Assembly (NCBI GenBank): GCA_032718475.1
Contig: JAUCBJ010003070.1
Location: forward strand, 126,279 to 190,278
Length of the DNA: 64,000 bases
DNA from: Nemertoderma westbladi
Lineage: Eukaryota > Animalia > Xenacoelomorpha
Direction of reading: 5' to 3'
The translations under genes were made by a program, and so were the position numbers. How positions within the stretch are numbered: the stretch's first letter is position 1; every line of letters starts with the position of its first letter. Below the pieces are notes generated by a model. That model saw nothing but the letters and a program-made list of their open reading frames with translations, ran no database searches and had not been told where the DNA came from. This document shows, one piece after another, positions 16,274 through 60,139 of this stretch.

Positions 16274-16291
16274 CCGCTCCCAGAAAATGGG

Positions 16292-24752: not shown

Positions 24753-25609
24753 TATACGCGCTTTTGAAGACCTTTAGCAGTTTAACCTGCCAAAATTTAT
24801 ATGTCTTTTGGTTTATAAATAGACTTTAGAAGATGACAAATATTTAATACCAATAAACACAACATTAGCAGAAGCCAGCCTAGTGCGCGTCCATTCACCC
24901 GCTGGATATACCCGGGAGACTGGATTCTGAGGGCTTAGATTATTATTGCAGTGTAAGCTTACTGTATTGTATTATTCGATTGATAGTTAATAATTAATTT
25001 CTGACTAATATTATTCACTTTCGGGAAATATTAACAGTTCCTTCAGGACGTGGCGCTCTATCTAGGTAAACAGAGATATGACTTATACTAATCACAACGG
25101 TAAGTCGGTAAGGCTTATGATTCAGGTGCTGTAGTCAGTACCGAGATAACAGTTTGATGATCTTATAATTAAAGACGCTCTAATGTCAGAAACATTCCCC
25201 GGCCGGTGTTCAAGGCGTGGGGGAAACGTCAGCACTGAATCATGGGATTCTGCTGTACAGTTTTTACACAAAGGGAAAATCTCTGATTGGTCGAACTGAC
25301 GTGGACACAGCTGATAGATGTCGTCATTTGAGCTGAGCAGAACAAAGAACCAAGGCTCCGTGCAGAGGCTCCACGTGTACAGCTCAGCTATTAGCTGTCG
25401 TCTTAGTAACTACACTGTTCCAAGAGTATTTCGGCTTTTGCGTCATGGAATTGCGGATTATGTCCGCTAAAGTACACATACAGAAGAAATTACTTTTATG
25501 CCCTCTAAAACACCAGTACAGTAAGGACACGGCCCTTTTATGCCTGGTAAACCAACTACAGAGTACTTCACGGGGAAAATAACCGGCTAATTACGCAAAA
25601 GCCTTTACA
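24753..25609 (-). repeat. 5' LTR of non-autonomous BEL element (857 bp, mosaic)
   Basis: 25124-25609 is almost identical to 15788-16273; 24753-25110 is clearly diverged from 15066-15420. Confidence 0.85.
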
Positions 25610-40008: not shown

Positions 40009-41353
40009 TGTTCGCGCTTTTGAAGACCTTTAGCAGTTTAACCTGCCAAAATTTATATGTCTTTTAGTTAATTAACACACCTTTAGCATACGACAATATT
40101 TTATGCTAATAAACAAAACATTAGCCGAAGCCAGCCCATGCGCGATCATTCACCCGATGGATACACCCGGGAGGCTGAATTCGGATGCTTAAATTTTATT
40201 ATTGCAGTGTAAGGTTGCAGTGTAAACCTACTGTATTATTCGATTGATCGTTAATAATTAATTTCTGACAGATATTATTAGCTTTCGGGAAATATTAACA
40301 GTTCCTTTAGGACGTGGCGCTCTATCTATTTAAACAGAGCTAGGACTTATACTAAACGCAACGATAATGCTTATGATTAAAGTATAAGGCGCATTCTTTA
40401 GGAAATGCTTTGTTACCAATCACAATCATGCACACGATTCTGCCGACCGTCAGTAAATTTGATCACACATAAAGAGAACAGCAATTGACTCATGTAGTGT
40501 CTGCTAAATAACATTAGATTCAATACACACCACATTGATATAAATCGCAATTATTATGTATAGCCTGTCTCTCTAACCTGTAGTGTATCAAGAAAATTGG
40601 GAATTTTGGGTGATTTATCCGTATTCTCCAAAGGGCAATATTTCATCAACAAATCGATACAATTAATAACTGACGGTAAATAACAGTACAAACAATATAA
40701 TTAATAAGTAAAGTTCGGGAGAATCATATGACTACCAGTGAGTTAGTTAGTTAGTGAGGTAACAGTTATACTTTCAATAATTTAAGCAGTTTTACTAGAG
40801 TTCTTCCCAAAAGCCGGTGTTATGGCGAAAAATGGGAACACAACAACAGAATCATATGAAGAATCATATGACTACCAGTGAGTTAGTTAGTTAGTGAGGT
40901 AACAGTTATACTTTCAATAATTTAAGCAGTTTTACTAGAGTTCTTCCCAAAAGCCGGTGTTATGGCGAAAAATGGGAACACAACAACAGAATCATATGAA
41001 GAATCATATGACTACCACTCTATACGAGGATACCAACTACCCTTATTCCCCGAAGCTCCCGTCCAACACAGAGGATGAGCATACAGATAGGAAATTCAGT
41101 TCAGTAGCTCTGGGATAGGTCGAAATCAACGCCAACTCAAATTCTATTGGCCGATACGGAACACAGGGCTGAGGCAACCTCCCTAAGCTGGTTGGCCGAT
41201 CAAACAGAACCCAGATCCCTTCGCACAGCAAATCAGCCAATCAGCCGGTAGCTTGCACTATTCTAGCTAGATATCCCTTTTTAGAGTATTCAGCGACTGG
41301 GGGGAACTGGTTAGCAAAGCAAACGAATCAGTTATCCCACAAAAGCTTTTACA
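40009..41353 (-). repeat. 3' LTR (contains a 140-bp tandem duplication at ~40721-41017)
   Basis: Direct repeat of 57609-58953; preceded on the sense strand by the short purine tract GGGAGCGG (41354-41361). Confidence 0.97.
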
Positions 41354-41431
41354 CCGCTCCCAGAAAATGGGATTTAAGTCTATAAAATATACAAAATCAC
41401 AGTTTCTAAAATATAAAAATACTCTAAACAG

Positions 41432-44400
41432 TTAGTCTTTTTTGCGCGGACGGCGTTTACGCAGTTTTTTAAAGCTAGCAAGAGTCTTTTTCTCTTTGGG
41501 GCGAGCCACTTTACGAGGAGGGCTATAACTCCTGGGTGAAGGGTGCAATATGATTGCATCAGAAGGTATGGGATTACGATCGGTATATCCGCCGGTCGAA
41601 GTGCCGGGTTGGTCGACTTCCACTTCGGTGGGGAGGGGTTTAACGACCTTTAGAGCGCGTTTTAAGACGGCTGCTCTTACGGGTCCTTTAAGAGTCGTCT
41701 GAACGAGAGCCGTGGGTGGGCCATAGGCAGTCAGAAACTTCCTTGGTTTAATGGTTCTTTCCAACTCGCGTTCGCGGGCTCGGTACTCGTAAGGCCGTCG
41801 ATATACTTCCTGTAATTCGGGGTGTGAGTTGACAAATAAGTCTCCATAGGCAGGGTCTTGACGGATAAAGTTTATTAAGTTGTAAGAATAGATGTCACTC
41901 GGATTAATGCTCCTGAGAAATTTGCGTACATATTTGGTTGAAATACATTCTCCAATGCGCTTCAGTAGTTCATAACTTGATAGGCGTGATTTCTGCTCGA
42001 CGGAGGCAAACAAATAAGGATGGAACGCATAAACTCCTTCGTAAGCGCGTCCAGGGTAATAGCGATGGCGTGAATCACAATGTAAATCAGCGTTCGCTTC
42101 CCAAGCTCTGATATAACGTAGTACAATCATTTCATCTACGCTCTCTAAATCATGATTAAAGGGACAATCAAAGCTGGCGTGTCCTTTTAATTGACAATGA
42201 TGGCATTGAGTCATAAATTGGGGGCAGACAGCAAAAATGTGCAAATTATTAAGCCGACAATATGCACAATAGATTTCCATCGACGGTTGCTCGTGGAAAT
42301 AGGAACAGAGATCGTTGGTGTCCATAGACGTAATATGGTCTCTCGATGCGCACAGCCGACAACGTTGTCGAGAAACATAATTGGCATGGCGATAATCATA
42401 CGCAGTAAGACACTGTGGACCTTGATACCATTCCAATATGTAGTCGCTATCGCTACTCCGAGACGTGGGGGGCTGAATCTCTTCAGATTCTAAACATATG
42501 GGTTCGTCTTCCCCTTGTATAGTTGAGGTAGGCATGGCCGTCTCCTCAAGTGGACCTACCGTCTGAATTTCCACGACAGAATAACCTGTGGGGATTCGAG
42601 GTCTTTGGATAACAGAGGAGTGCAGGTTTATTATACAAATGTCTTTGAAAATAGCAAATCCAGCGCTATCTAACTTCTCCGCAGCCGAGTCTCTTAAGCT
42701 GAGCTTGGTCAAAGCGCGGTCTTTGAATTGGCTATCCACGTTGCGAAACGGGGTTAAAAATCGTCGGAAACATTCAAAGCGGATGAATTTATTATGTTCA
42801 TCTAGCTTAGCGAGTTTGGTCCCAAGTATTAATGGATGGGCGCGTATAGTACGACTGCACACATCGGCTAGCCAACCGGAAAGTGCGGTGTTTTCGAAGA
42901 TCGTGTAGATAGCTAAGGAGGGGCGGAGTGGAACACTCATGAAGCTATACACGGCGCCAGGTGCGGTCAACGGTCCGTCAAAGTATAATCGAGAATAATG
43001 GTCTCCGTATACTTGTTGATAGTTGATGGGATTTCCGACCTTGAAATTCCATCCGTATTCCTGAAAAGCAAGATGTCCGATGGAAGTTCGTTGCACCTTT
43101 GTAATGTTGCTAGACGCATTAGCATACATGGTGCGAAAGAAACCTCGGCCTTCGGCCCAAGGAGCTATCAGCTGAGTATCCACGAAAGGATAGGGGATAT
43201 TTTCCATATTCCGAAAGTCGTTTTGGAGATCTCCGTAAACAGCTGAGCCGATTTTAATGATTCTTTCGTTGAATAACATCTCGAGAACGGGCTGGGGTAA
43301 CATCGATCCATCGATACCCATGGCCGGTTTGCGTTCGGTGTCAATGACGTAACGCTGCGCGAGTTCGAATTGTCCATGTCGGAGATTCTTTTGCGTTTCG
43401 GTGAGAGTTTCAAAGGAATAATCGATCACGTCGGAACACGCTCGCGTAAACACGTGAGTGGAACCAGCTAATCCGCGTATGTGTATCATGCGCGTAGTTC
43501 CTAATTCTCCGATTGGAACGCTACCTTCGTTATCGTAAGTAACAACGCCATACATCTCAATGATATTAAGAGTTTCATTCCACTCTTTGGTGGCGTTCTC
43601 GAGGGTCATCCCTACTGGATGCCACAAGGTGGCGCATTGATTAGCGTCAGGGAGATCACTATACTTCATGTATCGAGTGGTATACGTCTCCACATTTCCA
43701 TATCTTTGTATTTTCTCCTCCTCGAATAATACGTCTAGATTCCAATGGACTAATCGAGTTTTAATAAATCCATCGAGATTATAAGGAGGTTCTGTATCCT
43801 TCTCTATTCGAGAAACGTTATATGGTTTTCGAAATGAGTTTACCTTTACTAACTGATCCAGATGTTTTTGCAATTGTTCGAGTTCGACAATGTCCAGAGG
43901 ATTTATTAGTGGTAGAAACTTTAAATTATGCGTCGGATCTTCTGGTTTTACCATATAATATTGAGTCAGATTAACGTAATAAGGGTGGTCTTTAATTCCA
44001 TAAAAAGAGTTCTGTAAAGGTCTAGCGCGTATGTTGACATCGTGTACCATACGACGGACAAGATCCGCTCGATTGTCCGGAGGTTCAACGAGTATACCGT
44101 CAACTCGAGCGGCCTCGATTGGCGGACGCTGTAACATAGGAGCGTCAGCGATAAGATTTTGCGATCTTATGCTGATATCAACCGGTTGGGGTTGTATCTT
44201 TGCAAAAAGTTTGTCTCCGAAATGCGGAACCATCGAGGGATGACGGACGGTTTTAGAGTAGAGATCGGTTATGAGTATCTGAGCTTCGGGTTGGGCTAAA
44301 GCGGCTTCTTCTCTCTCATCCATTTCCGTATGTTTCTCCTCTAGTTGATTTTCCTCCGCTTGTTTCTGTAAGCGTTCTTCTAGAAACTCCTGTAGAGAAT

Positions 44401-45685
44401 ACGTACGTCCAAGCTCGATGTCCTCTTCGAGGTTTTGGATTTCTCTATCAAACTGCGGCAAGGCTAACTCTTTCACCGATTGGACCTGCTGCTGTAATTT
44501 ACGTTTCTCTAGAAAATCCTGTGTTCCCTTTCCGATTTTCTGTCGGATGGCGTCTAAAGCGTTTCTGATGACACTCTCCTCGACTTCCGTGGCAGGTTGT
44601 ATCGGAGTTAATCCTGGCCGATTGTAAGGATTAAATGGCGATGTTAGATGCCCGCGTCCCAATCCGGTTAAATAGGATGGTCGAATATCTAACGAACCTA
44701 CCGCTGGAACACCACCGATTAACTGCTCGGGTAACACCAAATCTTTGAACAGTGAGTATAACTCGGGAGGATCAGTGATACTGTTAGGATCAAGAGTTTG
44801 AGGTCTCACTGGGGAATGAGGAGGCCTGACCGAGTATTCCGGAACTCTGATCATGGGTTTATTTAGCGATCGTTTTAGACGGGCGATCGTAGGTGATACG
44901 TCGAACAGGTTTCGCTCGAAACTCCCGTAAGTATAACGCGTAAAACTGTGTTTAGCACAACGTCTCCGCGGATGTTTATGTCTTTCCGTTTGCTGGTTAG
45001 GTCTAGGGCATGAGTCACAATAATACCAAAGACGTACGTCCTGCAGAGGAAACGCGGGTGATCGTTCTCCAGTTTTGCAATACTCTTCCATTTGTTCAAA
45101 GCTGTCCGGGACAACAGGCAGTGGACGATCTGCGGTAAGATACATCATGGTGAAATAGAGTCGTTTGAGTTCTACCATGGGATCGTGATGTATACCTTGA
45201 GGATATCGAGTCTCTAGGTTCTGTTGACTGGCAATATTGAGATAGGTTTCTCTCAAAAATTCCAAGTAGTCGTTGAAGTTGATGCGCTTATCGGGTTCTT
45301 CAACGTTTTCTCTGTCGAGTAGGTTGCGAATAGAGTTCTCGTGTTCTATTCTCGGTTTATCATTACGATTCCGCTGGGCATGATATTTAAATAAAACCAT
45401 TTCCCTTTCGGTGTCTACATCTTCCGTATCATGTAAATCGGTAGGATGGCCGGTAGTTAAGAAGTCCATATACGTACCATTACGATTCGTATAGCGAGCG
45501 GTGAATTTTCTATAGTCCAATTCACGCGTAAGTTGTTCCTGGGACATCGGCGGTTCGATATAACGACCATCGTCCTCCGTAATAGTCGGATCGGCTTCAC
45601 CGCGTATCAAGCTATCCACAAACGCTTGTAAAGGTAGAGTATATCGCTCTCTAATACCAAGGTCATCTTCTATCAATTCCGTCAT
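41432..45685 (-). CDS. Accessory ORF3: 1417-aa protein with DEDDy (RNase D/WRN/EXD-like) 3'-5' exonuclease domain and CCHC zinc knuckles
   Basis: ExoI VVTYDNEG (aa ~714), LPQPVLEMLFNERIIKIGSAVYGDL (ExoII), FVDTQLIA, SIGHLA...GWNFK, PLRPSLAIYTIFE (ExoIII-like); CAYC-x5-H-x4-C and CHHC-x4-H-x4-C; basic C-terminus; no obvious signal peptide or TM. Confidence 0.75.
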   Translation of the reverse strand: MTELIEDDLGIRERYTLPLQAFVDSLIRGEADPTITEDDGRYIEPPMSQEQLTRELDYRKFTARYTNRNGTYMDFLTTGHPTDLHDTEDVDTEREMVLFKYHAQRNRNDKPRIEHENSIRNLLDRENVEEPDKRINFNDYLEFLRETYLNIASQQNLETRYPQGIHHDPMVELKRLYFTMMYLTADRPLPVVPDSFEQMEEYCKTGERSPAFPLQDVRLWYYCDSCPRPNQQTERHKHPRRRCAKHSFTRYTYGSFERNLFDVSPTIARLKRSLNKPMIRVPEYSVRPPHSPVRPQTLDPNSITDPPELYSLFKDLVLPEQLIGGVPAVGSLDIRPSYLTGLGRGHLTSPFNPYNRPGLTPIQPATEVEESVIRNALDAIRQKIGKGTQDFLEKRKLQQQVQSVKELALPQFDREIQNLEEDIELGRTYSLQEFLEERLQKQAEENQLEEKHTEMDEREEAALAQPEAQILITDLYSKTVRHPSMVPHFGDKLFAKIQPQPVDISIRSQNLIADAPMLQRPPIEAARVDGILVEPPDNRADLVRRMVHDVNIRARPLQNSFYGIKDHPYYVNLTQYYMVKPEDPTHNLKFLPLINPLDIVELEQLQKHLDQLVKVNSFRKPYNVSRIEKDTEPPYNLDGFIKTRLVHWNLDVLFEEEKIQRYGNVETYTTRYMKYSDLPDANQCATLWHPVGMTLENATKEWNETLNIIEMYGVVTYDNEGSVPIGELGTTRMIHIRGLAGSTHVFTRACSDVIDYSFETLTETQKNLRHGQFELAQRYVIDTERKPAMGIDGSMLPQPVLEMLFNERIIKIGSAVYGDLQNDFRNMENIPYPFVDTQLIAPWAEGRGFFRTMYANASSNITKVQRTSIGHLAFQEYGWNFKVGNPINYQQVYGDHYSRLYFDGPLTAPGAVYSFMSVPLRPSLAIYTIFENTALSGWLADVCSRTIRAHPLILGTKLAKLDEHNKFIRFECFRRFLTPFRNVDSQFKDRALTKLSLRDSAAEKLDSAGFAIFKDICIINLHSSVIQRPRIPTGYSVVEIQTVGPLEETAMPTSTIQGEDEPICLESEEIQPPTSRSSDSDYILEWYQGPQCLTAYDYRHANYVSRQRCRLCASRDHITSMDTNDLCSYFHEQPSMEIYCAYCRLNNLHIFAVCPQFMTQCHHCQLKGHASFDCPFNHDLESVDEMIVLRYIRAWEANADLHCDSRHRYYPGRAYEGVYAFHPYLFASVEQKSRLSSYELLKRIGECISTKYVRKFLRSINPSDIYSYNLINFIRQDPAYGDLFVNSHPELQEVYRRPYEYRARERELERTIKPRKFLTAYGPPTALVQTTLKGPVRAAVLKRALKVVKPLPTEVEVDQPGTSTGGYTDRNPIPSDAIILHPSPRSYSPPRKVARPKEKKTLASFKKLRKRRPRKKD

Positions 45686-47307
45686 ATCTGCTATCTGAGT
45701 TTATTAATATCAGTATGAGTTAATATTTAGGCAAGCGGGCGTCGCTGCCTACTAGTCTTTGCCCCCGGACAGTGGGTTTCTCAGCGCCGATGTACCGTCG
45801 TCGCGGTGTTTACGCCAACATGTAGCAACAGCACGACAACGATAACCGGCACAAGTCCCACCACTGTCCGTCCCAAAGGCTTGAATCCACTTGAGGTTAT
45901 CTCGGTAGAGTTAGGGCTACTTTACAATTGCGATTAGCTACTGTAAACACACTTTAGTAGTAACATTCACCTATAAACGCCCAAATTCCATACAATTGGA
46001 CAATTACTTACTGCATACATGCAGGCCATTTGTCCGTTAATCAGTGTCTTCCAGAATGTCACGTTATTACTATGTATCCTTGGATACTAATAGTGCGCTA
46101 TGTATACTCTTATGCTACGCAATGGGGCAAGCTTTTTATTGTTCCTTTAACTTGCTTCTAATTCTAGCGTGGGTGTTGCCATGGTGACATTATGGAAAAC
46201 TAGCGGTAGAATTAGAGTAATTCTCATGCATACAGATCTGGGATGCTATTTAATAGTAATTCTTTAATTGTCAATATCCTCTTTATGCATGATTTTATAA
46301 ATTTTATCGGCTATTGACTATATGTTGGAGATTCTCGCACTCTAGTACACTCAATATGAATCTCCGCTCCCATGATCTATTAATTACTGGAATTTTGGGA
46401 ATGTTATAAATTGCACAAAATGACAATTTATGAAATTCATTTGAATATGAATTTAAATTTATTCCCGTGAATTTTATTATTTGATGTTAAATTGACACAA
46501 ATTTCATTCCAGAGCATATCTGGGGACTTAGGATCCTTAATTCTATAAAATAGTCCTTCTAAGAATATCGGTAAATACTGCGATATCTTAATTGACTAGA
46601 AATTTTAAAGGATCGGGATTTTACAGATTTTAATAAATATTAAATTAATATTTAGGATGAGCACCGATTTATTCCAGAACTTGTCTGGGGACGTTAACCA
46701 CTGATTCTAGAATTTGTCTTTCAAGTATATCGGTGGGTGCTACGATATCTTAATCGACTAGAATTACAGATGGTCAAAAAGTTTAACAGATTTATTTGCG
46801 ATTTACGCTACTGTTAGAGGGACATCACGCTACTATATGTATTATTTGTTATAAGGTAGAAGAGCAATATCGCACGAAGCAATGTCAGTGTGAAGAGGCA
46901 AGTCGTTTCCAAGGTCTACCCAGAGCTTGGTTTAGCCGAGACACGAGGATCTGAACTTTGCATTCCTAATACTCTGCCTACCAATAATACTTAAATATAG
47001 TAGTGGCTTTATTGTACTTTAATAAGTACTGACATGTCATCTTACTATAGTCTCGCATTTATAATATAATACGGACAGTAAGGAAAGAGAAAATAATTAT
47101 TTCTTGCCGTCGCACTAAATATATTATAGGTAATTAAATACGTAATAAACACTAATATATTGCACTAATTTACTAAATATTCTAAAATAACATTTTACTA
47201 AATAAAATTAAATAAAAACGATTATAATAACGTACATAATAACATTTACATATAAAATGTAATAAAAATAGATAAAATAATATAGACATACACCCACTCC
47301 AGACGTA

Positions 47308-47982
47308 CTACGTTGAAGAGCCCCTAGATGTTTGAGGTATTAGGGAGGTGGTCGTGGGAAGGGTTTCTTGCCTTCCATAGTTTCCGGAGAGTTCCCGGTC
47401 TCTTTCCAGCAAACATAAACGACCAACCGGGCGATTGAGTTGTTGCGTCTCAAAGATTATGCCGGGTTTCTTGAAGTTACGTCGCATGACGACGAGTTCT
47501 ACCGAGCGCACTAGACCATCCTCCGAGATGTGCGTCTCGATGATACGACCTATCTGCCACCGTCTACGTGGAAGGTCCGGATCTACAATAAGGACCATGT
47601 CTCCGGCGCTGACATTTTCCTGCTGCGCAAACCACTTAGTTCGAAGTTGTAGCGTGGGCAGATAATGTTTCTCAAAATGGTCAGCGAAACGACGGGATAG
47701 CAACTGCATAAGCTGCCAAGTTCGACGACAGTATTCATCTCCATCGGCAATCTCGGATTGTGGGAGCATGGCTACAGGTTTCTTAAGTAGGAAGTGCGCG
47801 GGTGTTAGCGCTTCCAGGGAGTCGAGACTCGATGAGACTGGCATAAGCGGTCTCTCGTTAAGATAGGCAGCGATTTCTTCCATTAACGTCCGCAGAAGTT
47901 CGTCGGTGAGATATGCACGGCACGGCACTATAAAGCGGTCTTGACACTTCGAATTAATCTCTCCCAACTTCCTCCCCACCAA
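47308..47982 (-). CDS. pol: Integrase C-terminal part, separated from pol by a frameshift near 47930
   Basis: LTDELLRTLMEEIAAYLNERPL, LTPAHFL, YLPTLQ.R.KW, W..GRI...DGLVRSV: a typical BEL integrase tail. Confidence 0.9.
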   Translation of the reverse strand: MVGRKLGEINSKCQDRFIVPCRAYLTDELLRTLMEEIAAYLNERPLMPVSSSLDSLEALTPAHFLLKKPVAMLPQSEIADGDEYCRRTWQLMQLLSRRFADHFEKHYLPTLQLRTKWFAQQENVSAGDMVLIVDPDLPRRRWQIGRIIETHISEDGLVRSVELVVMRRNFKKPGIIFETQQLNRPVGRLCLLERDRELSGNYGRQETLPTTTSLIPQTSRGSST

Positions 47983-50900
47983 GGGGCGTCGGCGGCGTTA
48001 AAGGTCCAGCTAGACGCCGTTATCCGTAGCTGGTCGTCCACCTGTCTTTGATTCCAGTCCTTTACGTAAGCCTGAATTTCGTTGTTGGCACCAATGAAGT
48101 TCGTTCCCTTATCGGATCTCATCGTGTTGCTAGTTCCGAAACGAGCGATCTGTCGTCGTAAACATAAGACGAAGCTGTTAGTAGATAGATCGTTCACCAT
48201 ATCGAGATGGATAGCTCTACAAGTCATGCAGACAAAGATTACACACCATCTCTTGACTATAGTTCTAGCACGATACACTTCAATAGGGCCAAATAAATCC
48301 ACACCAGTATTAGTAAAGGGTGGTTCATAAAAGCTTACTCGTTCCCTAGGTAATTCTGCCTCTCGCTGTGTTAAAGGCCTACTGAATGCTTTCCTACAAG
48401 GTATGCAGTTCCTAAGAACTTGATTCAGAGCTCTACGTGGTCTATGAAAATAATAGCGAGTTCGAATTTCGCTAAGAACTCGTTCTCTACCAGCATGATA
48501 CAGTTTACTGTGAACATCTACAATCATCTTGATTTGTACTTCAAGATTACTAATGAGTATAGGGAATTTAGTATCAAAGGATAATGGTGCGTTGGTAAGT
48601 CTTCCTCCAACACGTATTAACCCATCTATCATTGTGCTAGAGAAGCGATCCCTTAAGCGCATCTGCGGATTTCTCAATAACAGAAAATACCTATCGGAAT
48701 CCTCATAGCATTGCAGGAGTCTCAGTAGCTGCTTATTAGTTTCTTCATGCTCCTGGTAACTGATCTTCTCCTTTAGAAACCGGTCTGATATCTTGTACTT
48801 AGGTAGATCTTTAATAACATGAACTTGCGCAGATGTCACTGGAGCAGGATCACTAGTGGTCTGCGTCCTGGAGTAGTGATGGTGAAAACATCTCTTTAAG
48901 TATGTGACGGCTTTACAGAGACGATTCCAGGAACTGTAATGATGCAGTGCTCTCTGCAGCAGGGGTGAGATTCCTTGCGAGACGTCTGGTATCCCAGATT
49001 TCCAATCTCTGTCTCTAATTTCCACAACAGACTTGTTTGTGGCGAGGGATTGTGGATCCAAAGTATCGTTTTCGGCAGTATGTAATACAGATAGATCGAT
49101 TGTTGGTTTAAATAACTTCGATTTACTTGTCCGAGTTTTGGGTTTGACTTTCTCCGCTCCCTTGGCTTGTCTAATCTCAGCCGTAGTAAGGTGAGGAGGC
49201 CATTCATCCTCTTCCTTGCTCAGGAAGTCGGGTCCACCCAACCAGTCAGGAGTATCTATCAGTTCCTGTGGAGTTGCTCCTCTGGAGGCGATGTCAGCTG
49301 GGTTAATCGTACCAGGGCAATGTCTCCATTGATCTATCGTTGTGCGACTAAGAATAATGGCCACTCTGTTAGTAACAAAGACGCTGAACTGACAGACTTC
49401 ATTCGTTATATATTCCAACACAAGTAAAGCGTCGGTCCAATAAACAGTTTTCTCCAGTGGATAATCGATCTGTTCTGTTACATTCCGTCCGATAGCTGTA
49501 GCGTATAAAGCTGCTTTTAACTCTGCCCGAGGAACCTTCAGCTTGTTGTTAATCAATGCCTTAGAGGTAACCAAGGCAACTTTGATTCCATCCGGAGTTT
49601 CGACTCGCAGGTATGCTACTATACCTATTCCCATATCGCTGGCATCTCCGAATACATGGAGTTGATAGGAATATGTAGGGAGAACATGACCAAAATATGA
49701 ACGGGAAATTATAAAGTTCTCGATGGCAGGTAGCGAGTCCTCCCATTTCATCCATTTCTTTAATAGTTCTCCCTTGAGTGGATCGTCCCACGAGTGGTTT
49801 TCAAGCCACATTTGTTGTACTAAACTCCGAGCAATCAATATAACTGGGCTAATAAATCCCAAGGGATCGAAATAAGTGCTCAGAATACTTAAACAAATCC
49901 GTTTGGTCCGAACTGGATTATCTCGCTGTTTTAGCTGAAAAAACAGGATATCTCTTTCTGTGTCCCACTTCAAGCCAAGCGTCTTGGTTTCCGGAAGATC
50001 GTCATGTATTAAGTCGAGGTCTTTTGATCCCCGGTCTTCTACAGATATTGCTTCCAGAAACTCACGGGAGTTGCTGGTGAACTTCGTCAATCGAAATCCA
50101 CCTCTTTTCAAACACTCAACCGTTCCTTTCGCGACATCAATGGCTTCTTTTACTGATGGAAGGGACTTTAAATTGTCGTCCATGTATATGTCTCGTTTGA
50201 TGTTATCTATCACCTCTTTGGAGAAGGCGTCCCGGTTGTCATCCGCAGTGGTACGAACCACTGAGCAGGCGTTTGAAGGGCTTGATATAATCCCAAAAGC
50301 CTGGATGGTCATCCAGTACTCTACCGGTTTCTGGTTGAGATCTCCTTCAGGCCACCACAGGAATCTTAGGCTGTCTCTATCACGATCCAACGCCTTGACT
50401 TCTAAGAACATTCCTTCTATATCGGAGGCGAACGCGATGGAATATTGTCTTAATCTTAAAAGTATTCCCAATAAAGATTGGAGCAAGTTGGGTCCTGGTA
50501 ACAACTCGGAATTGAGGGATTGGCCCATATATAGGGCGGAGCCATCAAATACGACCCGTACTTCATGGGGTTTACCGGGTTTGGGAACGTAATGATGTGT
50601 TAGATAATAAGTTCTTTCAGTTATTGGAGTTCCTTCCGGTACTCGCTCCGCATATCCCTTTGTGATAAATTTCTTCAACTGAGTTTGGTACATTTCCTTA
50701 GCTGAAGCATTTGCCGTAAGACGTCGATGTAATTGATTGATTCTTTTCTCAGCCAAAGGTCTGTTATTTATAAATCTAGGTTCCCGTTTTCGAAATGGTA
50801 GTCCGATTTCATATCTACCTTGATCTTTTAAAAAACGTGTGGTTGTTTCCTGGATTTGCTTGGCTCTTTCTTCTTCTATCGACAGGGCTTTGTCGTATGA

Positions 50901-53900
50901 ATTGGGTTCTACTAATTCTTGGGTAAAGAATCGTATGGCGAGTTCGTCCCGAGTTCTAGCGTTGTAGCGCTCTACCTCGTCATTAAGTTCGTCATTATAA
51001 ATCATGGATTCCGTTGGGCGAATCAGTTGACATAGGTTCGCTTGGTTTTTCCAAGTATGATTCTCTGTAAGTAGGTCAATTGTGTTCTCTTCTTCGAAGA
51101 GTTGGTAGATGTTGTCATTATCTGAGGAGTATGGTGTTCCCTCAGTTAGTTCGTCCACTTCACTGCTTTCCACTTCCCAATCGTTTACTTGATATATTTG
51201 TTCGTGTGGCATTCTCTCTTCGAGAGTTCTACGGGAAGGGCCAGTAAAGTACCAACCTACTCTAGTTCTTACCGCATAGGTTTGCAGTGGCTGTGGTTGA
51301 GCAGGCCGTTTCTCTAATGTTTCGAGCGCCTCGTGCGCGTTTTGGCCGATGAGTATTTGCACTCCAGGATAATCTGTCTGGAATCGAGGTATCTTAAGAT
51401 GTTGGATGCTCTCATCTTCGTCCCAATTATAAAGGTCTGCTTGAGTAGTAGCAAAGTTCTTTATAGCCACCATTTTTACTGACCTTATACCTTGTGTTCC
51501 TAACTTATCCTGGGGGGTGGACAACACACCTACATAGTAATCTGCCGTTAGGGTAGATTTCCAAACCTGCATAATTCCTGACATATTCAATTTAGTCCGG
51601 AACTTGGGTTGTCCAGCAAAGATATCTTCGGCTAGTTCTTGATCGATGAATGTTCCTGTGCTGCCGGAGTCAAGGAGGGCGTTCACTATGTAGCTTTTGT
51701 TAAGACCGTGAACTCTTACTTGAACTACAGGAAATTCTCTGATTCCTACGTTGGAAGCTGGAGCTTTCCAAGATGGTTGTTTGGTGAAAGTAGTTGGGGG
51801 AAACTCATCGTTGATGTCCTTTTCGTAAGTAAGTGCTCGATACACTGCGGTATTTATTAGATAACAGGATTCATTGGCATCGGAGAATTCGTCAGTATAG
51901 AATCCTTCCATCTCAGACTCTTGATCAGTGTCGTTTACGTCACTGAATTGGACATGTAGTTCGGGCTCACTTACCTGACTCTGTCTGTCTCGTTCGAACT
52001 CACTGTGTAACAAGATGTTATGTTTCGCGCCACACTTTGCACACTTTATGTCGGAGTAACAGGTTCGCCGTTGATGTCCTGGTCTGAGGCAATTATAGCA
52101 TAACCGCTTGTCCCATACGACTGTACATCTGTCTACAAGGGATTTCTTTAGAAATTCAGCACACGCACTCAAACAGTGGGTCCCGTCGCACAGCGCACAG
52201 TTAGGTTTTATGTTACTCACTTTACCTTGGGTAACTTGATGCACTCTCGTTTTTTCTTCGGGTTTTCTTCGGTGCATTCTGTTAGGAGACTGAGGAGGGG
52301 TCTTGGCAACCTGTTCTTTCCTATCGTTGTTTCGAGCCTTGTATTTACTTACGTCCTTTGAGGTTTTGTCAACATAGTAAGATCGGTCTGTGTCTTTCCC
52401 ACTGTCCTCTTCTTGGGAAGCTTGGCTTTCGCCGTCGTCAGTGTAACACACCGGTGTTACTCTTCTCCTAGAAGTGGGTTTCTCACTTACCTTATTTTCC
52501 GATGTTTTCTCTCTGGACTGCTTGATGAGTTGTAGTTTTACTTCACCATCTAAGAAAGACATGAGATCAGCCATGGTAGGACTTCGTCGTTGTTGTTCAT
52601 TCATGTACATCACTTTCTTGTCCCAGCGTGTACATACTCCACCCTTTGGTAAAGTAGAGACTACGGCTCCAATAACCATGGAACTCTGATATTCATGCGA
52701 CTTACCTAACCAGTCCAGTTGTCTACAGATCTCTTGAATCTCATCGGAAAACTCTATAATCCCGCTACTAAGGAAGTGTCGGGGGGCTACTAATTTTGCA
52801 TACAAATACTTAGCTATGTTATCCTTGTTACCATACCTGATGTTTAATGTATCCCAAACTTGTCTTAATCCTTCTGGATGTCCAATAAACTTTAACGCCA
52901 TTAACTTGGGAGGTCCTTCCAAGCACTTGATGAGGAATCTAAGTTTCTCTCCGTTAGATAGTACAGAGTTCTGTATGCTATCTTTGTAATATTCGTTGAA
53001 AGGTAACCATTTCATCTCATCTCCATTGAATTTGACGATCTCTCCCACTTTGACCGCTTGGCGGGCTTCTGTTCTAGCCATCTGACGCGTAAAGCTTTCT
53101 TGGGCCATCGTGTTATTTAATATCGAATTATCGGTATATAAATTTCTCGGATTATTATCAGGTCTATAGGGAATATTATTAGCAACAGGCGTATAATCAC
53201 CCTTAATAGGGTTTGCTATAGGAGTTTCTACTTCACTAGCAGTATAGATGCGTGTAGGCTCCACACCTTGCGCATGTAGTACTTCAGACCTAACAGGTTG
53301 ACACAATGTTACAGGGGGTATTGGTATGCCCTTTTGGATATTGACTAATTTGTCGCGTTCTAGTGCGATACTTTGCTGCACTTCTTGCAACTCTGCTCTA
53401 CCTTCCCTCACTGTTCCCTTAAGTTGGTGGACAGTCTCCTGCATCTGTCCTAGCAGGAGATTCATCCCCCGCCGTCCCTCTTCTACCCACTCAACCGCCG
53501 AAGCGGGAGTCGCCAACATAGTAGCGGGCTGACGCGGGACGACGGGAGACAAATCTTTGATTTCTCTCTCTGCTATCCGGACAGGGATATTCTCTTGGAC
53601 TGTTCCACCGGGTACAGGCAGTGTAGTACTATGTAAAGGGAATTTAGAGTTAAGCTCTGGAAGTATAGGGGTCTCTAACACAGAAGTGACTTTGGGAACG
53701 ACAGGCCTAATTATTTCAGGCTCATCAACTATTGTAGGGAGTCTTTTGACCTTAATAATTTGGGCTGTAGGTTCTATACTACTCAAGTCTGTGCTAGCTA
53801 GCTGTCTTCTAACAGCTGGGGGCAAATCAGGCAATTTGCGACGGTAAGATGTTTTTCTACGCCTACTTAGATGAGATCTATTTCCTCCGCCTTCAGGATC

Positions 53901-55043
53901 GGTGGTCTCGCCTTCCTCCGAGGATGTGTATCCCTGGCGCTTGGGAGTAGATTTTCTCATCATCTGCATTTGATTAGCAGTAAACTGTTTATTTAGACTG
54001 TCTTGCGTCTCTTGCAGATTTTCCAACTCCAGTTGGATAGTCTCCTCAGAAGCTCTCCGTTCTGCTTCTGCCACTGCTGCTTTTCTTTCTGCTTCTGCTT
54101 CTGCCGCCTTTCTTTCGGCTTCTGCTTCTGCCGCTTTTCTTTCGGCTTCTGCTTCGGCCGCCGCTGCTGCTGCCACCTTTCTTTTCTCTATCCGTTCTTT
54201 CTTTACTTGTTCTTCTCGGACTCTAGTGAGGCGGAGTTTTTCATCAAATTCAGCTTGGTTTGCAGCTAACATTTCGGCATCGATTGAGTCCAACACAAGC
54301 TTGGTTCCTTCACTATTAGGGGAAAGTCCAGACAGCCGTCTCCTCAACTCTTCGTCTCCTAGGAATCGCTGATAGTCGGACAGATAAATGTCGATAGCGT
54401 CTCTAGTTCGCGGTTTCTCGGCGGTCTCTTCGCTTTCCACTTGAGAAAGGGTGACATCAGTTTGTTCTTCATAGGTTGATCTTTCAGCCAGCTGGGATTT
54501 CCACTGGGCCGTTTCCTGTACTTTGAGACCTACCCGATGTAACCAAGTTTTGACAGCAACCTGCAGCGACGTATCCTGTCTTCTTTTGGAAGTTTCTTCA
54601 AAGGCTGAGAGGATTAGTCGAATGCGTAGGGTTCTTTCGCGTACTTGGTATAGCAGCTCTTCCTGCTCTTGAGGTCCTTGGGGTTGTCGAAACAGTTGTT
54701 CTTCCAATCGCTCCAAGGAGCCGAAGAATCCCTGCACATATCCTGCTGCCGACCTCTTCCAAACAGCTGGATCCATTGTATCTTTAGCCACTCCCATCCT
54801 GTGTATATCTTCCCAAGTAGCCTCGGACAGATCCAACGGGAGTCCGAGTCCGGGAAAGTTCCATTTTGACTCGACAATAGACATCAATTCTTCCCTGGCG
54901 TATCCCGCATAATTATCTTGGGTCGCTCGCTTATTTCTCGCCCAGTCGGCTTGATGTTCCTCCACCGCAATGAATATAGTAGTTAGCACTGCAGCAGGAA
55001 GGGTGAGAAGGGGGTCCGAGTAGACTGTAGCAGCCATCTGCAC
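47928..55043 (-). CDS. gag-pol: BEL/Pao Gag-Pol polyprotein
   Basis: Gag with three zinc knuckles, PR LLDSGS, RT VRVVFDGS/DIEGMF/YMDD, RNase H VFGDAS...NPADIASRG, IN HHCC plus GVDLFGP/SDKGTNF/WERL. Confidence 0.97.
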   Translation of the reverse strand: MQMAATVYSDPLLTLPAAVLTTIFIAVEEHQADWARNKRATQDNYAGYAREELMSIVESKWNFPGLGLPLDLSEATWEDIHRMGVAKDTMDPAVWKRSAAGYVQGFFGSLERLEEQLFRQPQGPQEQEELLYQVRERTLRIRLILSAFEETSKRRQDTSLQVAVKTWLHRVGLKVQETAQWKSQLAERSTYEEQTDVTLSQVESEETAEKPRTRDAIDIYLSDYQRFLGDEELRRRLSGLSPNSEGTKLVLDSIDAEMLAANQAEFDEKLRLTRVREEQVKKERIEKRKVAAAAAAEAEAERKAAEAEAERKAAEAEAERKAAVAEAERRASEETIQLELENLQETQDSLNKQFTANQMQMMRKSTPKRQGYTSSEEGETTDPEGGGNRSHLSRRRKTSYRRKLPDLPPAVRRQLASTDLSSIEPTAQIIKVKRLPTIVDEPEIIRPVVPKVTSVLETPILPELNSKFPLHSTTLPVPGGTVQENIPVRIAEREIKDLSPVVPRQPATMLATPASAVEWVEEGRRGMNLLLGQMQETVHQLKGTVREGRAELQEVQQSIALERDKLVNIQKGIPIPPVTLCQPVRSEVLHAQGVEPTRIYTASEVETPIANPIKGDYTPVANNIPYRPDNNPRNLYTDNSILNNTMAQESFTRQMARTEARQAVKVGEIVKFNGDEMKWLPFNEYYKDSIQNSVLSNGEKLRFLIKCLEGPPKLMALKFIGHPEGLRQVWDTLNIRYGNKDNIAKYLYAKLVAPRHFLSSGIIEFSDEIQEICRQLDWLGKSHEYQSSMVIGAVVSTLPKGGVCTRWDKKVMYMNEQQRRSPTMADLMSFLDGEVKLQLIKQSREKTSENKVSEKPTSRRRVTPVCYTDDGESQASQEEDSGKDTDRSYYVDKTSKDVSKYKARNNDRKEQVAKTPPQSPNRMHRRKPEEKTRVHQVTQGKVSNIKPNCALCDGTHCLSACAEFLKKSLVDRCTVVWDKRLCYNCLRPGHQRRTCYSDIKCAKCGAKHNILLHSEFERDRQSQVSEPELHVQFSDVNDTDQESEMEGFYTDEFSDANESCYLINTAVYRALTYEKDINDEFPPTTFTKQPSWKAPASNVGIREFPVVQVRVHGLNKSYIVNALLDSGSTGTFIDQELAEDIFAGQPKFRTKLNMSGIMQVWKSTLTADYYVGVLSTPQDKLGTQGIRSVKMVAIKNFATTQADLYNWDEDESIQHLKIPRFQTDYPGVQILIGQNAHEALETLEKRPAQPQPLQTYAVRTRVGWYFTGPSRRTLEERMPHEQIYQVNDWEVESSEVDELTEGTPYSSDNDNIYQLFEEENTIDLLTENHTWKNQANLCQLIRPTESMIYNDELNDEVERYNARTRDELAIRFFTQELVEPNSYDKALSIEEERAKQIQETTTRFLKDQGRYEIGLPFRKREPRFINNRPLAEKRINQLHRRLTANASAKEMYQTQLKKFITKGYAERVPEGTPITERTYYLTHHYVPKPGKPHEVRVVFDGSALYMGQSLNSELLPGPNLLQSLLGILLRLRQYSIAFASDIEGMFLEVKALDRDRDSLRFLWWPEGDLNQKPVEYWMTIQAFGIISSPSNACSVVRTTADDNRDAFSKEVIDNIKRDIYMDDNLKSLPSVKEAIDVAKGTVECLKRGGFRLTKFTSNSREFLEAISVEDRGSKDLDLIHDDLPETKTLGLKWDTERDILFFQLKQRDNPVRTKRICLSILSTYFDPLGFISPVILIARSLVQQMWLENHSWDDPLKGELLKKWMKWEDSLPAIENFIISRSYFGHVLPTYSYQLHVFGDASDMGIGIVAYLRVETPDGIKVALVTSKALINNKLKVPRAELKAALYATAIGRNVTEQIDYPLEKTVYWTDALLVLEYITNEVCQFSVFVTNRVAIILSRTTIDQWRHCPGTINPADIASRGATPQELIDTPDWLGGPDFLSKEEDEWPPHLTTAEIRQAKGAEKVKPKTRTSKSKLFKPTIDLSVLHTAENDTLDPQSLATNKSVVEIRDRDWKSGIPDVSQGISPLLQRALHHYSSWNRLCKAVTYLKRCFHHHYSRTQTTSDPAPVTSAQVHVIKDLPKYKISDRFLKEKISYQEHEETNKQLLRLLQCYEDSDRYFLLLRNPQMRLRDRFSSTMIDGLIRVGGRLTNAPLSFDTKFPILISNLEVQIKMIVDVHSKLYHAGRERVLSEIRTRYYFHRPRRALNQVLRNCIPCRKAFSRPLTQREAELPRERVSFYEPPFTNTGVDLFGPIEVYRARTIVKRWCVIFVCMTCRAIHLDMVNDLSTNSFVLCLRRQIARFGTSNTMRSDKGTNFIGANNEIQAYVKDWNQRQVDDQLRITASSWTFNAADAPWWGGSWERLIRSVKTAL

Positions 55044-55094
55044 TCCGCGTTCGGGGGTCAGCTCTACAGTATCCGAACTACTGGAGCTATCGGG

Positions 55095-55349
55095 TCACTG
55101 GGAAGTAGGTTCTTGACCAAGATGTTGCTGCGATAGGACAACTGCCTCTTGGTTCCGTTTGACCTGTGCTCGAGTGCCTATGATGGACCTATGGTGGACT
55201 AGCCTAGGGTCTGATACTACTGGAGGGATGACCTTTCTTGCAGTAGGAGGTGAGCTGAACTCCTTTCTTAATCGCTCCACACTCCTATCTGTGTCACAGA
55301 TGGTTGTATCGATCAGACTGTCTGACAGGTTTTGCTGAGTGTCAGACAT
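55095..55349 (-). CDS. gag: Probable true N-terminus of Gag, separated by one in-frame TGA
   Basis: Same frame as 55043; MSDTQQNLSDSL matches the start MSDTKRALSDSL of the sister element. Confidence 0.8.
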   Translation of the reverse strand: MSDTQQNLSDSLIDTTICDTDRSVERLRKEFSSPPTARKVIPPVVSDPRLVHHRSIIGTRAQVKRNQEAVVLSQQHLGQEPTSQ

Positions 55350-56719
55350 GTTTATCTATACAGTTGAATGTCTACTACTATAGTTTCAGTTAAAGCAAGT
55401 CTAGTAATTCAGTATGACCGCAAGCCTAGCGATTTATTACCGATACCGTTACTCGGTGTAATGTGATATATATACAATATATTAGAATACCGGTATGCTT
55501 ATAGTATATATATAAGTATTATTACAGACTAGCTTTGTCACACAGTACCGGTATATAATTTTAGCACAAATATATATAAATATATAATAGGCCTATCGTG
55601 AATACCGGTATACAGCTTACACTTATAGTATATATAAGTATAATTATGAACTAGAATTAATTACAGAATACCGGTATGATTTCAGCTCAAATTTATAGAA
55701 ATAAATATAATAAGCCTATGGTAAATACCGGTATGTCAATTATTTTTAGAATAATTGAATTTCTGAATATTTTAGGGTTACTTGGTTACTTTAACTTACT
55801 TTATTACCGTTATTTAAGCAGTAGTCCAACTGATATTGAGACCTAGTTGTTGTATGGCAGGCCTACTATTTATAAATCGTTTGAGTTGATTTATAATATA
55901 TATATACCCGTTTAAAATGGGTTTTGTCTATATTTGAAATAAATGTTATTATTCCTGGGGTTCACTACACAGAAGCTGTGCGCTCTCAGTGAAGTGCTAT
56001 TTATGGGACACTAAAACAGATAATTCTAATTTACCTAAGTTACTTAATACTACAAATTACTTACGATACGGGTGAGATTAATTTCTCTAATTAAAATACA
56101 ACAAAAATATTACGTACGAAATTTTTTAGGGTAATTTTACAGGAAGTCTACAAACCAGCCTAACAAAGGGTTAGATTTCTGGTTATTACAACGGACAGGG
56201 TACTACGGTATTTGAAATAATAAGTAGCAGTAAATATATTGCACTGTCCAGATAGGAAAATACCACCGCCTGACGACCTATAACCGTATCGCTATAGGTA
56301 CTACGTTATGTATCACGGAGTGTTCCTACCCAGAAGTTAATAGAGCTAACGAATGTGCCTATCAACCACTTTACAACACAAATATACTGCCTACACACTA
56401 ATTACTTCGGAAAGCACTGTACACTAAACCCTAAATTAGGTACAAGTACCGGTACAACAAATAATCAGTAGTTAAATATACTTGAACAGTTAAAAGAACC
56501 ACGGCATCTGCTGGAGTGACCAGAGCACAAAGTCACCAGTCTTGTCCTACGCCAAGCAGCCCGTGTAGTACCGGGGTTAATTTAACTATAACGGTATGTA
56601 TAACAAGCACAATTACTGTAGGAATAAACTTGGGGACATGAATGTTGCGAATAATCGCATAAACTCTGAATAATAAATATTACGCTACCCGTACAGAATA
56701 CTCAAACAAAATACAAACC

Positions 56720-57560
56720 AAACGCTGGCAGACTACCACCAAGCCTAAATAAACTACCGTACGTGTAGATTCTGAAATGGTTAGTTAGTATGCGTTCTAA
56801 CACGGTAGTACGACTTATTCTTTAAGAGGGGATTGACCTTACAGCATATGGCTGCCCCAACTTACTAACGGCACTTTATCAGACAAACTCCACACACACA
56901 GCAATCTCTTCAGACCTAATAATAGCTAGACAACAATCCAGCCTACAAAATATCTGAGTAATAACTATTACGGTACCTGAACAGACCACACAAACAAACA
57001 CAGGCTAAAACGCTGGCAGACTACGATCAAGCCTAAATAAACTACAGTATATGCAGATTCTGAAATAGTTAGTTAGTATGCGTTCTAACACGGTAGTACG
57101 ACTTATTCTTTAAGAGGGGATTGACCTTACAGCATATGGCTGCCCCAACTTACTAACGGCACTTTATCAGACAAACTCTACACACGCCGTAATCTCTCCA
57201 AACCCAACAACAGTCAGACAGCAGCTCAGCCTACAATTATCTGAACAATCTGAGCAGACTTACACGTCTTCAGCTCAATATTAACTTACTAGGAAATAAA
57301 ACCGACAGAAATAAGTAAAATCTCAATAAAAACCAGGGCTGCAGTCCCTGATTAAATACTAAGACCTACCGGTATACAATAATCAAATTCGAATAATACT
57401 AATGTACTTATACAGCAGTACCGGTTAGGACAGTTGGGCCTACAGACCTACAGAAGTACCGGTTCCGGCAGTTGGACCTACGGACCTACAGCAGTACCGG
57501 TTCTGGCAGTTGGGCCTACTGACCTACAGAAGTACCGTTTCAGGTTTACCGGTCACTACG
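56720..57560. repeat. Leader repeats: ~288-bp duplication and four ~38-bp units near the PBS position
   Basis: aaacgctggcagactac at ~56720 and ~57008; (c/a)agtaccggtt...gacctaca repeats at 57415-57560; same layout at 23864-24710. Confidence 0.85.
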
Positions 57561-57608
57561 GTATTTTGCAACCTTATTGCTTACTGCAATAAGATCTATA
57601 ACTGTTAC

Positions 57609-58953
57609 TGTTCGCGCTTTTGAAGACCTTTAGCAGTTTAACCTGCCAAAATTTATATGTCTTTTAGTTAATTAACACACCTTTAGCATACGACAATATT
57701 TTATGCTAATAAACAAAACATTAGCCGAAGCCAGCCCATGCGCGATCATTCACCCGATGGATACACCCGGGAGGCTGAATTCGGATGCTTAAATTTTATT
57801 ATTGCAGTGTAAGGTTGCAGTGTAAACCTACTGTATTATTCGATTGATCGTTAATAATTAATTTCTGACAGATATTATTAGCTTTCGGGAAATATTAACA
57901 GTTCCTTTAGGACGTGGCGCTCTATCTATTTAAACAGAGCTAGGACTTATACTAAACGCAACGATAATGCTTATGATTAAAGTATAAGGCGCATTCTTTA
58001 GGAAATGCTTTGTTACCAATCACAATCATGCACACGATTCTGCCGACCGTCAGTAAATTTGATCACACATAAAGAGAACAGCAATTGACTCATGTAGTGT
58101 CTGCTAAATAACATTAGATTCAATACACACCACATTGATATAAATCGCAATTGTTATGTATAGCCTGTCTCTCTAACCTGTAGTGTATCAAGAAAATTGG
58201 GAATTTTGGGTGATTTATCCGTATTCTCCAAAGGGCAATATTTCATCAACAAATCGATACAATTAGTAACTGACGGTAAATAACAGTACAAACAATATAA
58301 TTAATAAGTAAAGTTCGGGAGAATCATATGACTACCAGTGAGTTAGTTAGTTAGTGAGGTAACAGTTATACTTTCAATAATTTAAGCAGTTTTACTAGAG
58401 TTCTTCCCAAAAGCCGGTGTTATGGCGAAAAATGGGAACACAACAACAGAATCATATGAAGAATCATATGACTACCAGTGAGTTAGTTAGTTAGTGAGGT
58501 AACAGTTATACTTTCAATAATTTAAGCAGTTTTACTAGAGTTCTTCCCAAAAGCCGGTGTTATGGCGAAAAATGGGAACACAACAACAGAATCATATGAA
58601 GAATCATATGACTACCACTCTATACGAGGATACCAACTACCCTTATTCCCCGAAGCTCCTGTCCAACACAGAGGATGAGCATACAGATAGGAAATTCAGT
58701 TCAGTAGCTCTGGGATAGGTCGAAATCAACGCCAACTCAAATTCTATTGGCCGATACGGAACACAGGGCTGAGGCAACCTCCCTAAGCTGGTTGGCCGAT
58801 CGAACAGAACCCAGATCCCTTCGCACAGCAAATCAGCCAATCAGCCGGTAGCTTGCACTATTCTAGCTAGATATCCCTTTTTAGAGTATTCAGCGACTGG
58901 GGGGAACTGGTTAGCAAAGCAAACGAATCAGTTATCCCACAAAAGCTTTTACA
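57609..58953 (-). repeat. 5' LTR
   Basis: Direct repeat of 40009-41353. Confidence 0.97.
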
Positions 58954-59369
58954 ACTATAACTGGGAGAGTCAAAGCTAGTGTACACTAGAGTCAGTCAAG
59001 AGCTAGGAAAAATAATAATGCTCATCTAGGGTTCGAACTCACGACCTTCTAATTAGAAAACTAAGCAAATGATCCAGCTTGAATGCTTTAGACCCTTACT
59101 CTTAGGCATCGAGCAGCCAATGAGAGAGCAGATGCAAGTACAGTGGTAAAGCCCATCCATGGAGAGATATGTTCACACTAACTCCCAAGGATAGTTATAC
59201 TCACCATTCAAATATCCCTTTCAAACCAAATTCCCCCAGCATCTAAAGTATTCCACTTCAGTGCAAAATATATAGAGATTTAGTTGGATTTTAACTTGTG
59301 CTTGCAAACTCTTTTGTGCTCGTATATTATAATTTATTGTTCATGTAACGCAATATAACTCGGCTATTT

Positions 59370-60035: not shown

Positions 60036-60139
60036 GTGTCTCAGACCTAAAACTCGAGACTTTAGGAGTGTCTCAGGTCTTAAATCAGAGTCTTACAAAT
60101 TCGAACGTCAACGAACAAATTCGAACGTTACTGTTCCAC

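Follow-up and report, generated by a model that had tools for sequence, protein, structure and literature searches.

A stretch of 64,000 nucleotides (nt) from Nemertoderma westbladi, hereafter the window, contains a long terminal repeat (LTR) retrotransposon of the BEL/Pao type with a large additional gene in the env position. This open reading frame (ORF), which we call ORF3, encodes 1417 amino acids (aa) and is a selected gene common to the whole element family. Judging from its sequence, aa ~706–950 very probably form an RNase D-type (DEDDy) 3'-5' exonuclease domain, although this is not proven. The primer-binding site (PBS) of the element is complementary to its own LTR, and the element likely starts copying with its own RNA and not with a tRNA. 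All coordinates are collected in Table 1.

Both the domain set and the combination of LTRs with a target-site duplication (TSD) identify the element as a BEL/Pao (Belpaoviridae) LTR retrotransposon. Its single gag-pol follows the order protease (PR), reverse transcriptase (RT), RNase H, integrase, with matches to the Pfam families PF05380 (E = 4e-36), PF03564, PF17921 and PF18701. A database search with gag-pol recovered 300 relatives, and PF05380 was present in all 120 that were listed. The RT-RNase H region was at most 41–43% identical to the best database relatives, the named ones of which came from marine invertebrates, flukes and fish. The element is young, with four differences between its 5' and 3' LTRs. 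At 18,945 bp, it is about twice the usual upper BEL/Pao size, given the norm of 4.2–10 kb, with LTRs of 0.2–1.2 kb and env in few elements, stated in the available portions of a survey of the group (PMC3118150). No Rfam family or tRNA gene was found within the element, and scans of viral contigs with the BEL pol yielded no match.

ORF3 lies between the end of pol (47308) and the 3' LTR, on the same strand as gag-pol. As the preliminary description had stated, it is intact and devoid of a signal peptide or transmembrane anchor; the frame, the LTR map and the hydropathy profile all agree on this. In a Kyte-Doolittle scan the highest 19-residue mean was 1.37, and 0.46 near the N-terminus, so that no segment counted as hydrophobic and neither of the env (fusogen) hallmarks was found. 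The same description had taken the frame's survival, while gag-pol suffered two lesions, as a sign of constraint. The lesions are real, namely an in-frame stop near 55095 and an integrase frameshift near 47911–47930, but the open frame is weak evidence for selection, because only ~0.3 new stops are expected in ORF3 at the present LTR divergence.

Comparison among copies provided much stronger evidence. ORF3 was covered over its full length by contigs from four public sequencing runs, which belong to four studies and carry two organism labels, and one of which may derive from the source sample. The nuclease region had 1968, 925, 11 and 30 contigs per run, with identities from <90% to >99%. We evaluated the best-supported 40 variants in this region (nt 42850–43570), with 95 further ones outside the count. 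Synonymous changes made up 34 of the 40, against an expectation of 12.1 if base changes of these kinds fell at random (p ~1e-12, omega ~0.08). None of the 40 hit a candidate catalytic codon, and no indels were listed in the region at a 20% threshold. Against a decayed sister element in the same window, the ratio of nonsynonymous to synonymous rates (dN/dS) was 0.35, 0.16 and 0.21 in three segments of ORF3 and 0.25 in gag-PR. Constraint is uneven along the protein: of the 28 variants shown for the whole of ORF3, 15 were synonymous and 13 nonsynonymous, and nine of these 13 crowd into the C-terminal 175 aa, where they account for nine of the 14 variants shown. Of the three outcomes that the preliminary description had named as speaking against it, two, dN/dS near 1 among copies and absence of the frame from other family members, did not occur: the values lie far below 1, and the gene is shared by the family.

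These comparisons also bear on the notion that ORF3 is a host gene captured once and carried passively in a young insertion. The insertion is indeed too young for its open frame to count, and deletion derivatives without the domain occur: the sister keeps only aa 1–463 and 1365–1417, in pieces, with nuclease and knuckles gone, and a contig in run X5 jumps over 42513–45323. We nevertheless reject passive capture as extremely improbable, because the copy comparison shows selection. Purifying selection is strong across diverged copies, the sister also carries ORF3 at a synonymous divergence of 0.3–1.0, and base composition is gag-pol-like (GC content at third codon positions, 0.43 in ORF3 and 0.42 in gag-pol).

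The predicted nuclease domain contains the DEDDy motifs at aa 714–721, 796–804, 811–820, 835–839, 868–874 and 919–932, in the places and order previously proposed, with glutamate as the last acidic residue. The candidate ligands D718, E720, D819 and E931, together with Y927, read D-E-D-E. Four differently built tests agreed on the family and the region, three of them sharing the central segment. In the ESM Atlas, PF01612 clusters, mostly of giant-virus proteins, accounted for 25 of the 30 matches to aa 680–1020 (score 0.92). BLASTP against E. coli RNase D aligned aa 799–841 with the ExoII-DTQ segment at a pairwise E of 0.002, so that D819 matched the catalytic Asp. A filter-free hidden Markov model (HMM) of 71 bacterial PF01612 domains gave aa 798–846 a score of 8.7 bits, more than any of the 621 controls. 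These comprised 500 shuffles, one reversal and 120 BEL polyproteins; 163 of them scored at all, with maxima of 4.4 bits for a shuffle and 1.4 for a BEL polyprotein. With hhalign, the domain reached a probability of 50% (E = 1.7e-4), compared with 0.1% for the neighbouring 251 residues. The ExoI DxE and the ExoII D occur in order with the central K..DL..DTQ segment, and in a domain-trimmed alignment D718, E720, D819 and Y927 fell on invariant PF01612 columns, with E931 on the fourth acid column.

Several observations weigh against this assignment. In the ESM Atlas, the top match was an unnamed eukaryotic cluster, the feature overlap (153–157 of 256) was under the 170 typical of true members, and shuffled sequences attained 0.9 in 4–10% of cases. 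Statistical support is confined to the central ExoII-DTQ segment. Pfam gave no match in the domain region up to E = 10, so the curated PF01612 cut-off was not reached, and PDB sequence searches with the domain returned unrelated matches only. The fourth ExoIII position is D in 71/71 reference domains, as opposed to E931 in ORF3. From a single sequence, AlphaFold produced no usable fold (predicted local distance difference test, pLDDT, 30). Searches for ORF3 homologues, using near- and shorter-length words and scans of viral and metagenome contigs, found none, a result that does not by itself show absence. In addition, a PHROGs scan of the domain was negative, and a phage tblastn with ORF3 gave nothing beyond matches at E = 9. 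The DEDDy reading of the preliminary description thus stands on the ESM Atlas, the filter-free profile and the motif spacing, whereas a match at curated threshold and an independently predicted fold did not materialize.

The ExoIII motif itself can be placed in two registers. Residues 905–932 (window 42849–42973, minus strand) comprise two tandem 14-residue P-L-x6-Y units, possibly an old internal duplication. The spacing of Y927 and E931 from P919 fits the ExoIII YxxxD, with E replacing D. The register 14 residues upstream (P905/Y913/S917) would put Ser at the fourth-ligand site, which again tells against a nuclease; it was picked by a motif-chain test and by one earlier alignment. We discarded the motif-chain test as unspecific, since one of 120 BEL polyproteins beat ORF3, whose ExoIII it set in the other register, a further mark against the assignment. 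Our preference is for Y927/E931, since this unit could lead into a long helix, whereas prolines come after the other one. Which of the two is catalytic decides between a live and a dead enzyme.

A second AlphaFold model was built after the bacterial PF01612 rows had been trimmed so that MAFFT set ExoIII at Y927/E931; two earlier alignments, before trimming, had put ExoIII elsewhere. This model reached a pLDDT of 76–91 over the core and <50 over both insertions. Its Foldseek matches (RNase D, Nibbler, EXD2, Egl, NrnC, WRN and TbRND) are circular and not independent evidence, because the row trimming set the ExoIII placement; the structural alignments showed 10–14% identity. That low identity, the lack of a curated or PDB match and the unsuccessful independent fold prediction would all be expected if the motifs matched the family by chance and ORF3 were a conserved protein with a different fold. 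We regard such a coincidence as improbable in view of the agreement among the four tests and of the fitting motif order and spacing. Given the RNase D-type fold, the chance that the domain is catalytic appears slightly better than even.

The remainder of ORF3 suggests an RNA-binding protein in its C-terminal part. The three knuckles occupy aa 1109–1127, 1140–1154 and 1161–1174, and the third alone follows the canonical CX2CX4HX4C. Pfam zf-CCHC_3 matched them at E = 0.007, under its cut-off, and their best PDB sequence match, yeast Air2, was not significant (E = 0.088), although it shares the five-residue loop of the middle knuckle. Lys or Arg accounts for 15 of the final 30 residues. The N-terminal half (~700 aa) had no Pfam, PHROG or Atlas match; its Cys/His cluster region is 66% identical in the sister, where the first Cys is lost. 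Knuckles, basic tail and unassigned N-terminal half all agree with what had been noted before.

The second main observation concerns the start of reverse transcription. The PBS pairs with a 12-mer of the LTR at 12/12 positions, from the first base past the LTR, and this 12-mer occurs twice because of the 140-bp duplication, 760 or 900 nt upstream of the PBS. When the LTR was shuffled with its dinucleotides preserved, such a complement arose once in 3000 trials; it was found for 0/2558 other 12-mers of the leader and in 0/300 trials of a null that allowed shifts and splicing. The pairing closes both the minimum free energy (MFE) and centroid folds of an 836-nt RNA whose start was chosen near the motif. 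Complementarity of the PBS to the element's own LTR is the arrangement of Tf1-type self-priming, as given in the available part of PMC4600332.

The sister element shows a shorter version of this signature. Its U3 is unrelated save for a ~50-nt block around the 12-mer (4/1000 random pairs score equally), and the corresponding place in its LTR holds a 9-nt complement to its PBS, the last primer base having changed along with its PBS partner; cross pairings between element and sister stop short of the first PBS base at the 12-mer motif. The sister's match is weak by itself (30/3000 strict, 18/300 permissive). No splice-junction primer was found for the element or the sister. The sister's 5' LTR (window 24753–25609) is a chimera in which 486 bp match the sister's 3' LTR at 99.6% identity and are followed by an R-U5 with only ~82% identity to that LTR; it ends in TA, not CA.

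We further inspected 79 related metagenome loci, 10 of which had usable LTR ends; the other 69, without a usable pair, were excluded from the PBS comparison. A TGG site was present in none of the ten, and a 10–12-nt complement in six. Two of the six have contiguous complements of 10–11 nt (L208 and L171). In the remaining four (L167, L203, L231 and L187), the PBS pairs over 11–12 nt only with the junction formed by removal of a GT-AG intron from the LTR, a pairing matched by 0–2 of 300 null positions each. No complement was found in L217, L229, L169 and L196, whose LTR ends are uncertain or whose LTR was used in part. An ORF3 or DEDDy frame was present in none of the 79 loci, many contigs being too short to show one; the ten relatives span 6–8.5 kb and therefore have no space for a 4-kb gene. 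Self-priming is thus likely a trait of the clade, as suggested by these complements, and the ORF3 nuclease is unneeded for it, since six of ten relatives without ORF3 have the same PBS signature. No description of self-priming in BEL elements was found in the literature searched, mostly without subscription journals and Repbase Reports.

What, then, might ORF3 do? Our tentative proposal, possible although short of an even chance, is an active, knuckle-guided 3'-5' exoribonuclease directed against host RNA silencing. Expressed from a spliced or separately started RNA, the protein would enter the nucleus via its basic tail. By analogy with TbRND, the knuckles would grip single-stranded RNA a few bases before its 3' end and pass that end to the active site, and the DEDDy domain, with its predicted D-E-D-E two-metal site, would trim or destroy silencing RNAs of the host. 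The substrate might be small-RNA guides or their precursors, or else antisense RNA of the element. Action would be in trans, leaving copies without the domain still mobilisable. We arrive at an anti-silencing role because the clade can complete its core cycle without ORF3 while this family keeps the gene under strong selection, because deletion derivatives without the ORF3 nuclease exist, and because cellular relatives work in small-RNA pathways. Viruses deploy DEDD nucleases against RNA sensing. The lack of ORF3 in the 79 related loci fits an accessory role in host conflict. Those cellular relatives include mut-7, EXD1 and Maelstrom, according to the accessible sections of a study on rotifers (PMC5408684). 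The same sections describe no clear tie between DEDDy ORF3 and copy number in rotifers; this speaks against an anti-silencing function.

Alternatively, ORF3 could mature the self-primer, the exonuclease trimming an unpaired 3' tail back to the PBS/12-mer duplex and leaving a 3'-OH for reverse transcriptase. The absence of a tRNA-type PBS, the full LTR complement, the closure of both folds by this pairing and the sister's equally placed match with its matched base change would all suit such a role, and RNase D-type enzymes act in the processing of structured RNAs at their 3' ends (PMC5408684, in the available text). The idea has gained a concrete substrate in the self-complementary PBS and lost its necessity through the relatives that bear a 10–12-nt complement without ORF3, which indicate that the clade self-primes without the gene. 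The sister lends little support, its match being weak and its 5' LTR chimeric, and in Tf1 the primer cut is the work of the element's own RNase H. Primer maturation is unlikely. Its full form, in which a self-priming BEL/Pao family supplies the enzyme that matures its primer and a DEDE exonuclease guided by knuckles trims LTR-derived RNA to the 12-bp PBS duplex, strikes us as a shade less likely still; tRNA-free priming with a dedicated nuclease was not found for any retroelement in the literature searched.

A somewhat better case, still rather unlikely, can be made for a non-catalytic nuclease fold serving as an RNA adaptor, with ORF3 binding unspliced genomic RNA for export, shielding or localisation. 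The change of the fourth ligand (to E, or to S if the other register applies) and the two long insertions are compatible with a dead enzyme, and the basic tail, the knuckles and the sizeable N-terminal part without assignment with a binding protein; export would be a problem for an element with a 2.2-kb leader and probable splicing of its ORF3 RNA. Precedents, in the portions of the sources available, are CERV, which exports Cer1 genomic RNA (PMC10309623), and Egl (Egalitarian), in whose exonuclease-homology domain the catalytic residues are dispensable (PMC13186709). However, three of the four acids and the Tyr are retained at family spacing, no sequence link to CERV or Egl was found, and Egl was only one of many DEDDy matches of the forced model.

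Table 1 Features of the element, of ORF3 and of the sister element (window coordinates)
Feature	Position	Strand	Basis or remark
TSD, 5 bp	58954..58958; second copy 40004-40008		
5' LTR, 1345 bp, TG...CA, with internal 140-bp tandem duplication	57609..58953	(-)	
Candidate self-primer 12-mer in 5' LTR	58359..58370; second copy 58499-58510	(-)	
PBS, directly after 5' LTR, not tRNA-type (without TGG)	57597..57608	(-)	exact complement of LTR 12-mer
Leader, 2.2 kb, 38-bp and 288-bp tandem repeats, predicted hairpin directly after PBS	55350..57596	(-)	
gag-pol, BEL/Pao type	47308..55349	(-)	Pfam domains
AT-rich spacer, 1.6 kb, putative splice acceptors just upstream of ORF3 ATG	45686..47307	(-)	
ORF3, 1417 aa, intact, purifying selection	41432..45685	(-)	frame without internal stop
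Cys/His cluster, N-terminal half of ORF3	44948..45019 (aa 223-246)	(-)	
Predicted RNase D-type DEDDy 3'-5' exonuclease domain, two ~45-aa insertions	42836..43570 (aa 706-950)	(-)	
Three CCHC-type zinc knuckles	42164..42361 (aa 1109-1174)	(-)	
Basic C-terminal tail, putatively nuclear-localization-signal-like	41435..41524	(-)	
Candidate polypurine tract, short purine-rich tract preceding 3' LTR	41354..41361	(-)	
3' LTR, 1345 bp	40009..41353	(-)	
Candidate self-primer 12-mer in 3' LTR	40759-40770 and 40899-40910		
Decayed sister element, 84-89% identical, own 5-bp TSD	15066..25609	(-)	

The surrounding DNA is rich in other repeats and frames. The BEL element is flanked by inverted repeat copies (34698–36542 and 59495–60603), 90–94% alike and containing a 22/52/74-bp minisatellite, and a Penelope-like frame with an RT and a GIY-YIG match (37666–39486, plus strand) lies 0.5 kb from the insertion site. 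A 250-aa frame without a Pfam match (33973–34725, plus strand) gives the impression of a gag fragment, and the frames at 5912–8500 and 26897–28078 (plus strand) resemble, by reading, non-LTR reverse transcriptases. Further away, a 74-bp tandem array (8977–9356) is also palindromic, with 138-nt inverted arms 10 nt apart. An intronless 854-aa frame (2351–4915, minus strand) combines a hydrophobic anchor, an extended mucin-like repeat of Thr/Pro/Ser/Val and, at the C-terminus, a seemingly fibrinogen-related domain.

Since the extra genes of BEL/Pao elements have been described as envelopes, ORF3 extends probable exonuclease cargo to this superfamily. In the literature searched, no exonuclease ORF3 was found in BEL/Pao, only in rotifer Gypsy-type and Penelope-like elements. 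Should ORF3 act on small RNAs, it would be an animal case of a silencing suppressor that is a nuclease and is encoded by a retrotransposon. The match between PBS and LTR, present in six of ten relatives too, points to tRNA-free priming in BEL/Pao.

Among known systems, BEL/Pao elements with an env-type ORF3 (roo, Tas, Cer7 and the mosquito Chuviridae-like elements; available parts of PMC13524379, PMC554778 and PMC3118150) share the superfamily and the gene position, whereas ORF3 here is without fusogen features, in an 18.9-kb element with 1.35-kb LTRs. The Ty3/Gypsy elements Tf1 and Tj1, as described in the accessible part of PMC4600332, likewise have a PBS that complements their own LTR from right after the LTR, with no tRNA site. 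The present element differs in being BEL/Pao and in its distant, duplicated motif, a candidate primer that need not be the RNA 5' end. CERV of Cer1 (PMC10309623, in part) is, like the predicted ORF3 product, a large accessory protein of an animal LTR element, nuclear in its case, that combines a Cys cluster with an enzyme fold taken from elsewhere; it differs in its pseudo-GTPase fold, its overlap with gag and its Gypsy host element, and no similarity to ORF3 was found.

The closest precedent for the gene comes from bdelloid rotifers, as the preliminary description had stated correctly. Juno, Vesta and Athena/Terminon elements carry RNase D-like DEED ORF3s, with no activity data in the available portions of the report (PMC5408684), and roles in 3'-end processing or silencing have been proposed for them there and, again, in the available text of PMC6431247. 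Like ORF3, the Juno and Vesta proteins are RNase D-like, occupy the env position and lack a transmembrane segment or signal; in both cases one catalytic acid is altered and activity is predicted. They differ in residing in Gypsy-type elements and in reading DEED where ORF3 reads D-E-D-E, and the 1417-aa protein described here adds a ~700-aa N-terminus, three CCHC knuckles and a basic tail. While the rotifer genes came without demonstrated selection or activity, purifying selection is clear here. ORF3 resembles, but is not shown to be a member of, PF01612 or the rotifer ORF3 clade, the rotifer ORFs having been compared by description.

In architecture, ORF3 is nearest to TbRND of T. brucei, which trims guide-RNA tails and whose knuckles bind nucleotides 5–9 from the 3' end; its authors, in the part of their report available, call the combination of exonuclease and knuckles very unusual (PMC7797062; PDB 7C42 series). 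Both proteins would have an RNase D-type exonuclease followed by C-terminal CCHC knuckles, whereas TbRND, a cellular enzyme of ~375 aa, has four knuckles and an intact DEDD, and PDB sequence searches detected no significant sequence similarity between the two. TbRND may thus be regarded as an architectural analogue of ORF3 and the best working model for its action, and the TbRND-like design of nuclease plus knuckles can be assayed as a fragment of 250–470 aa.

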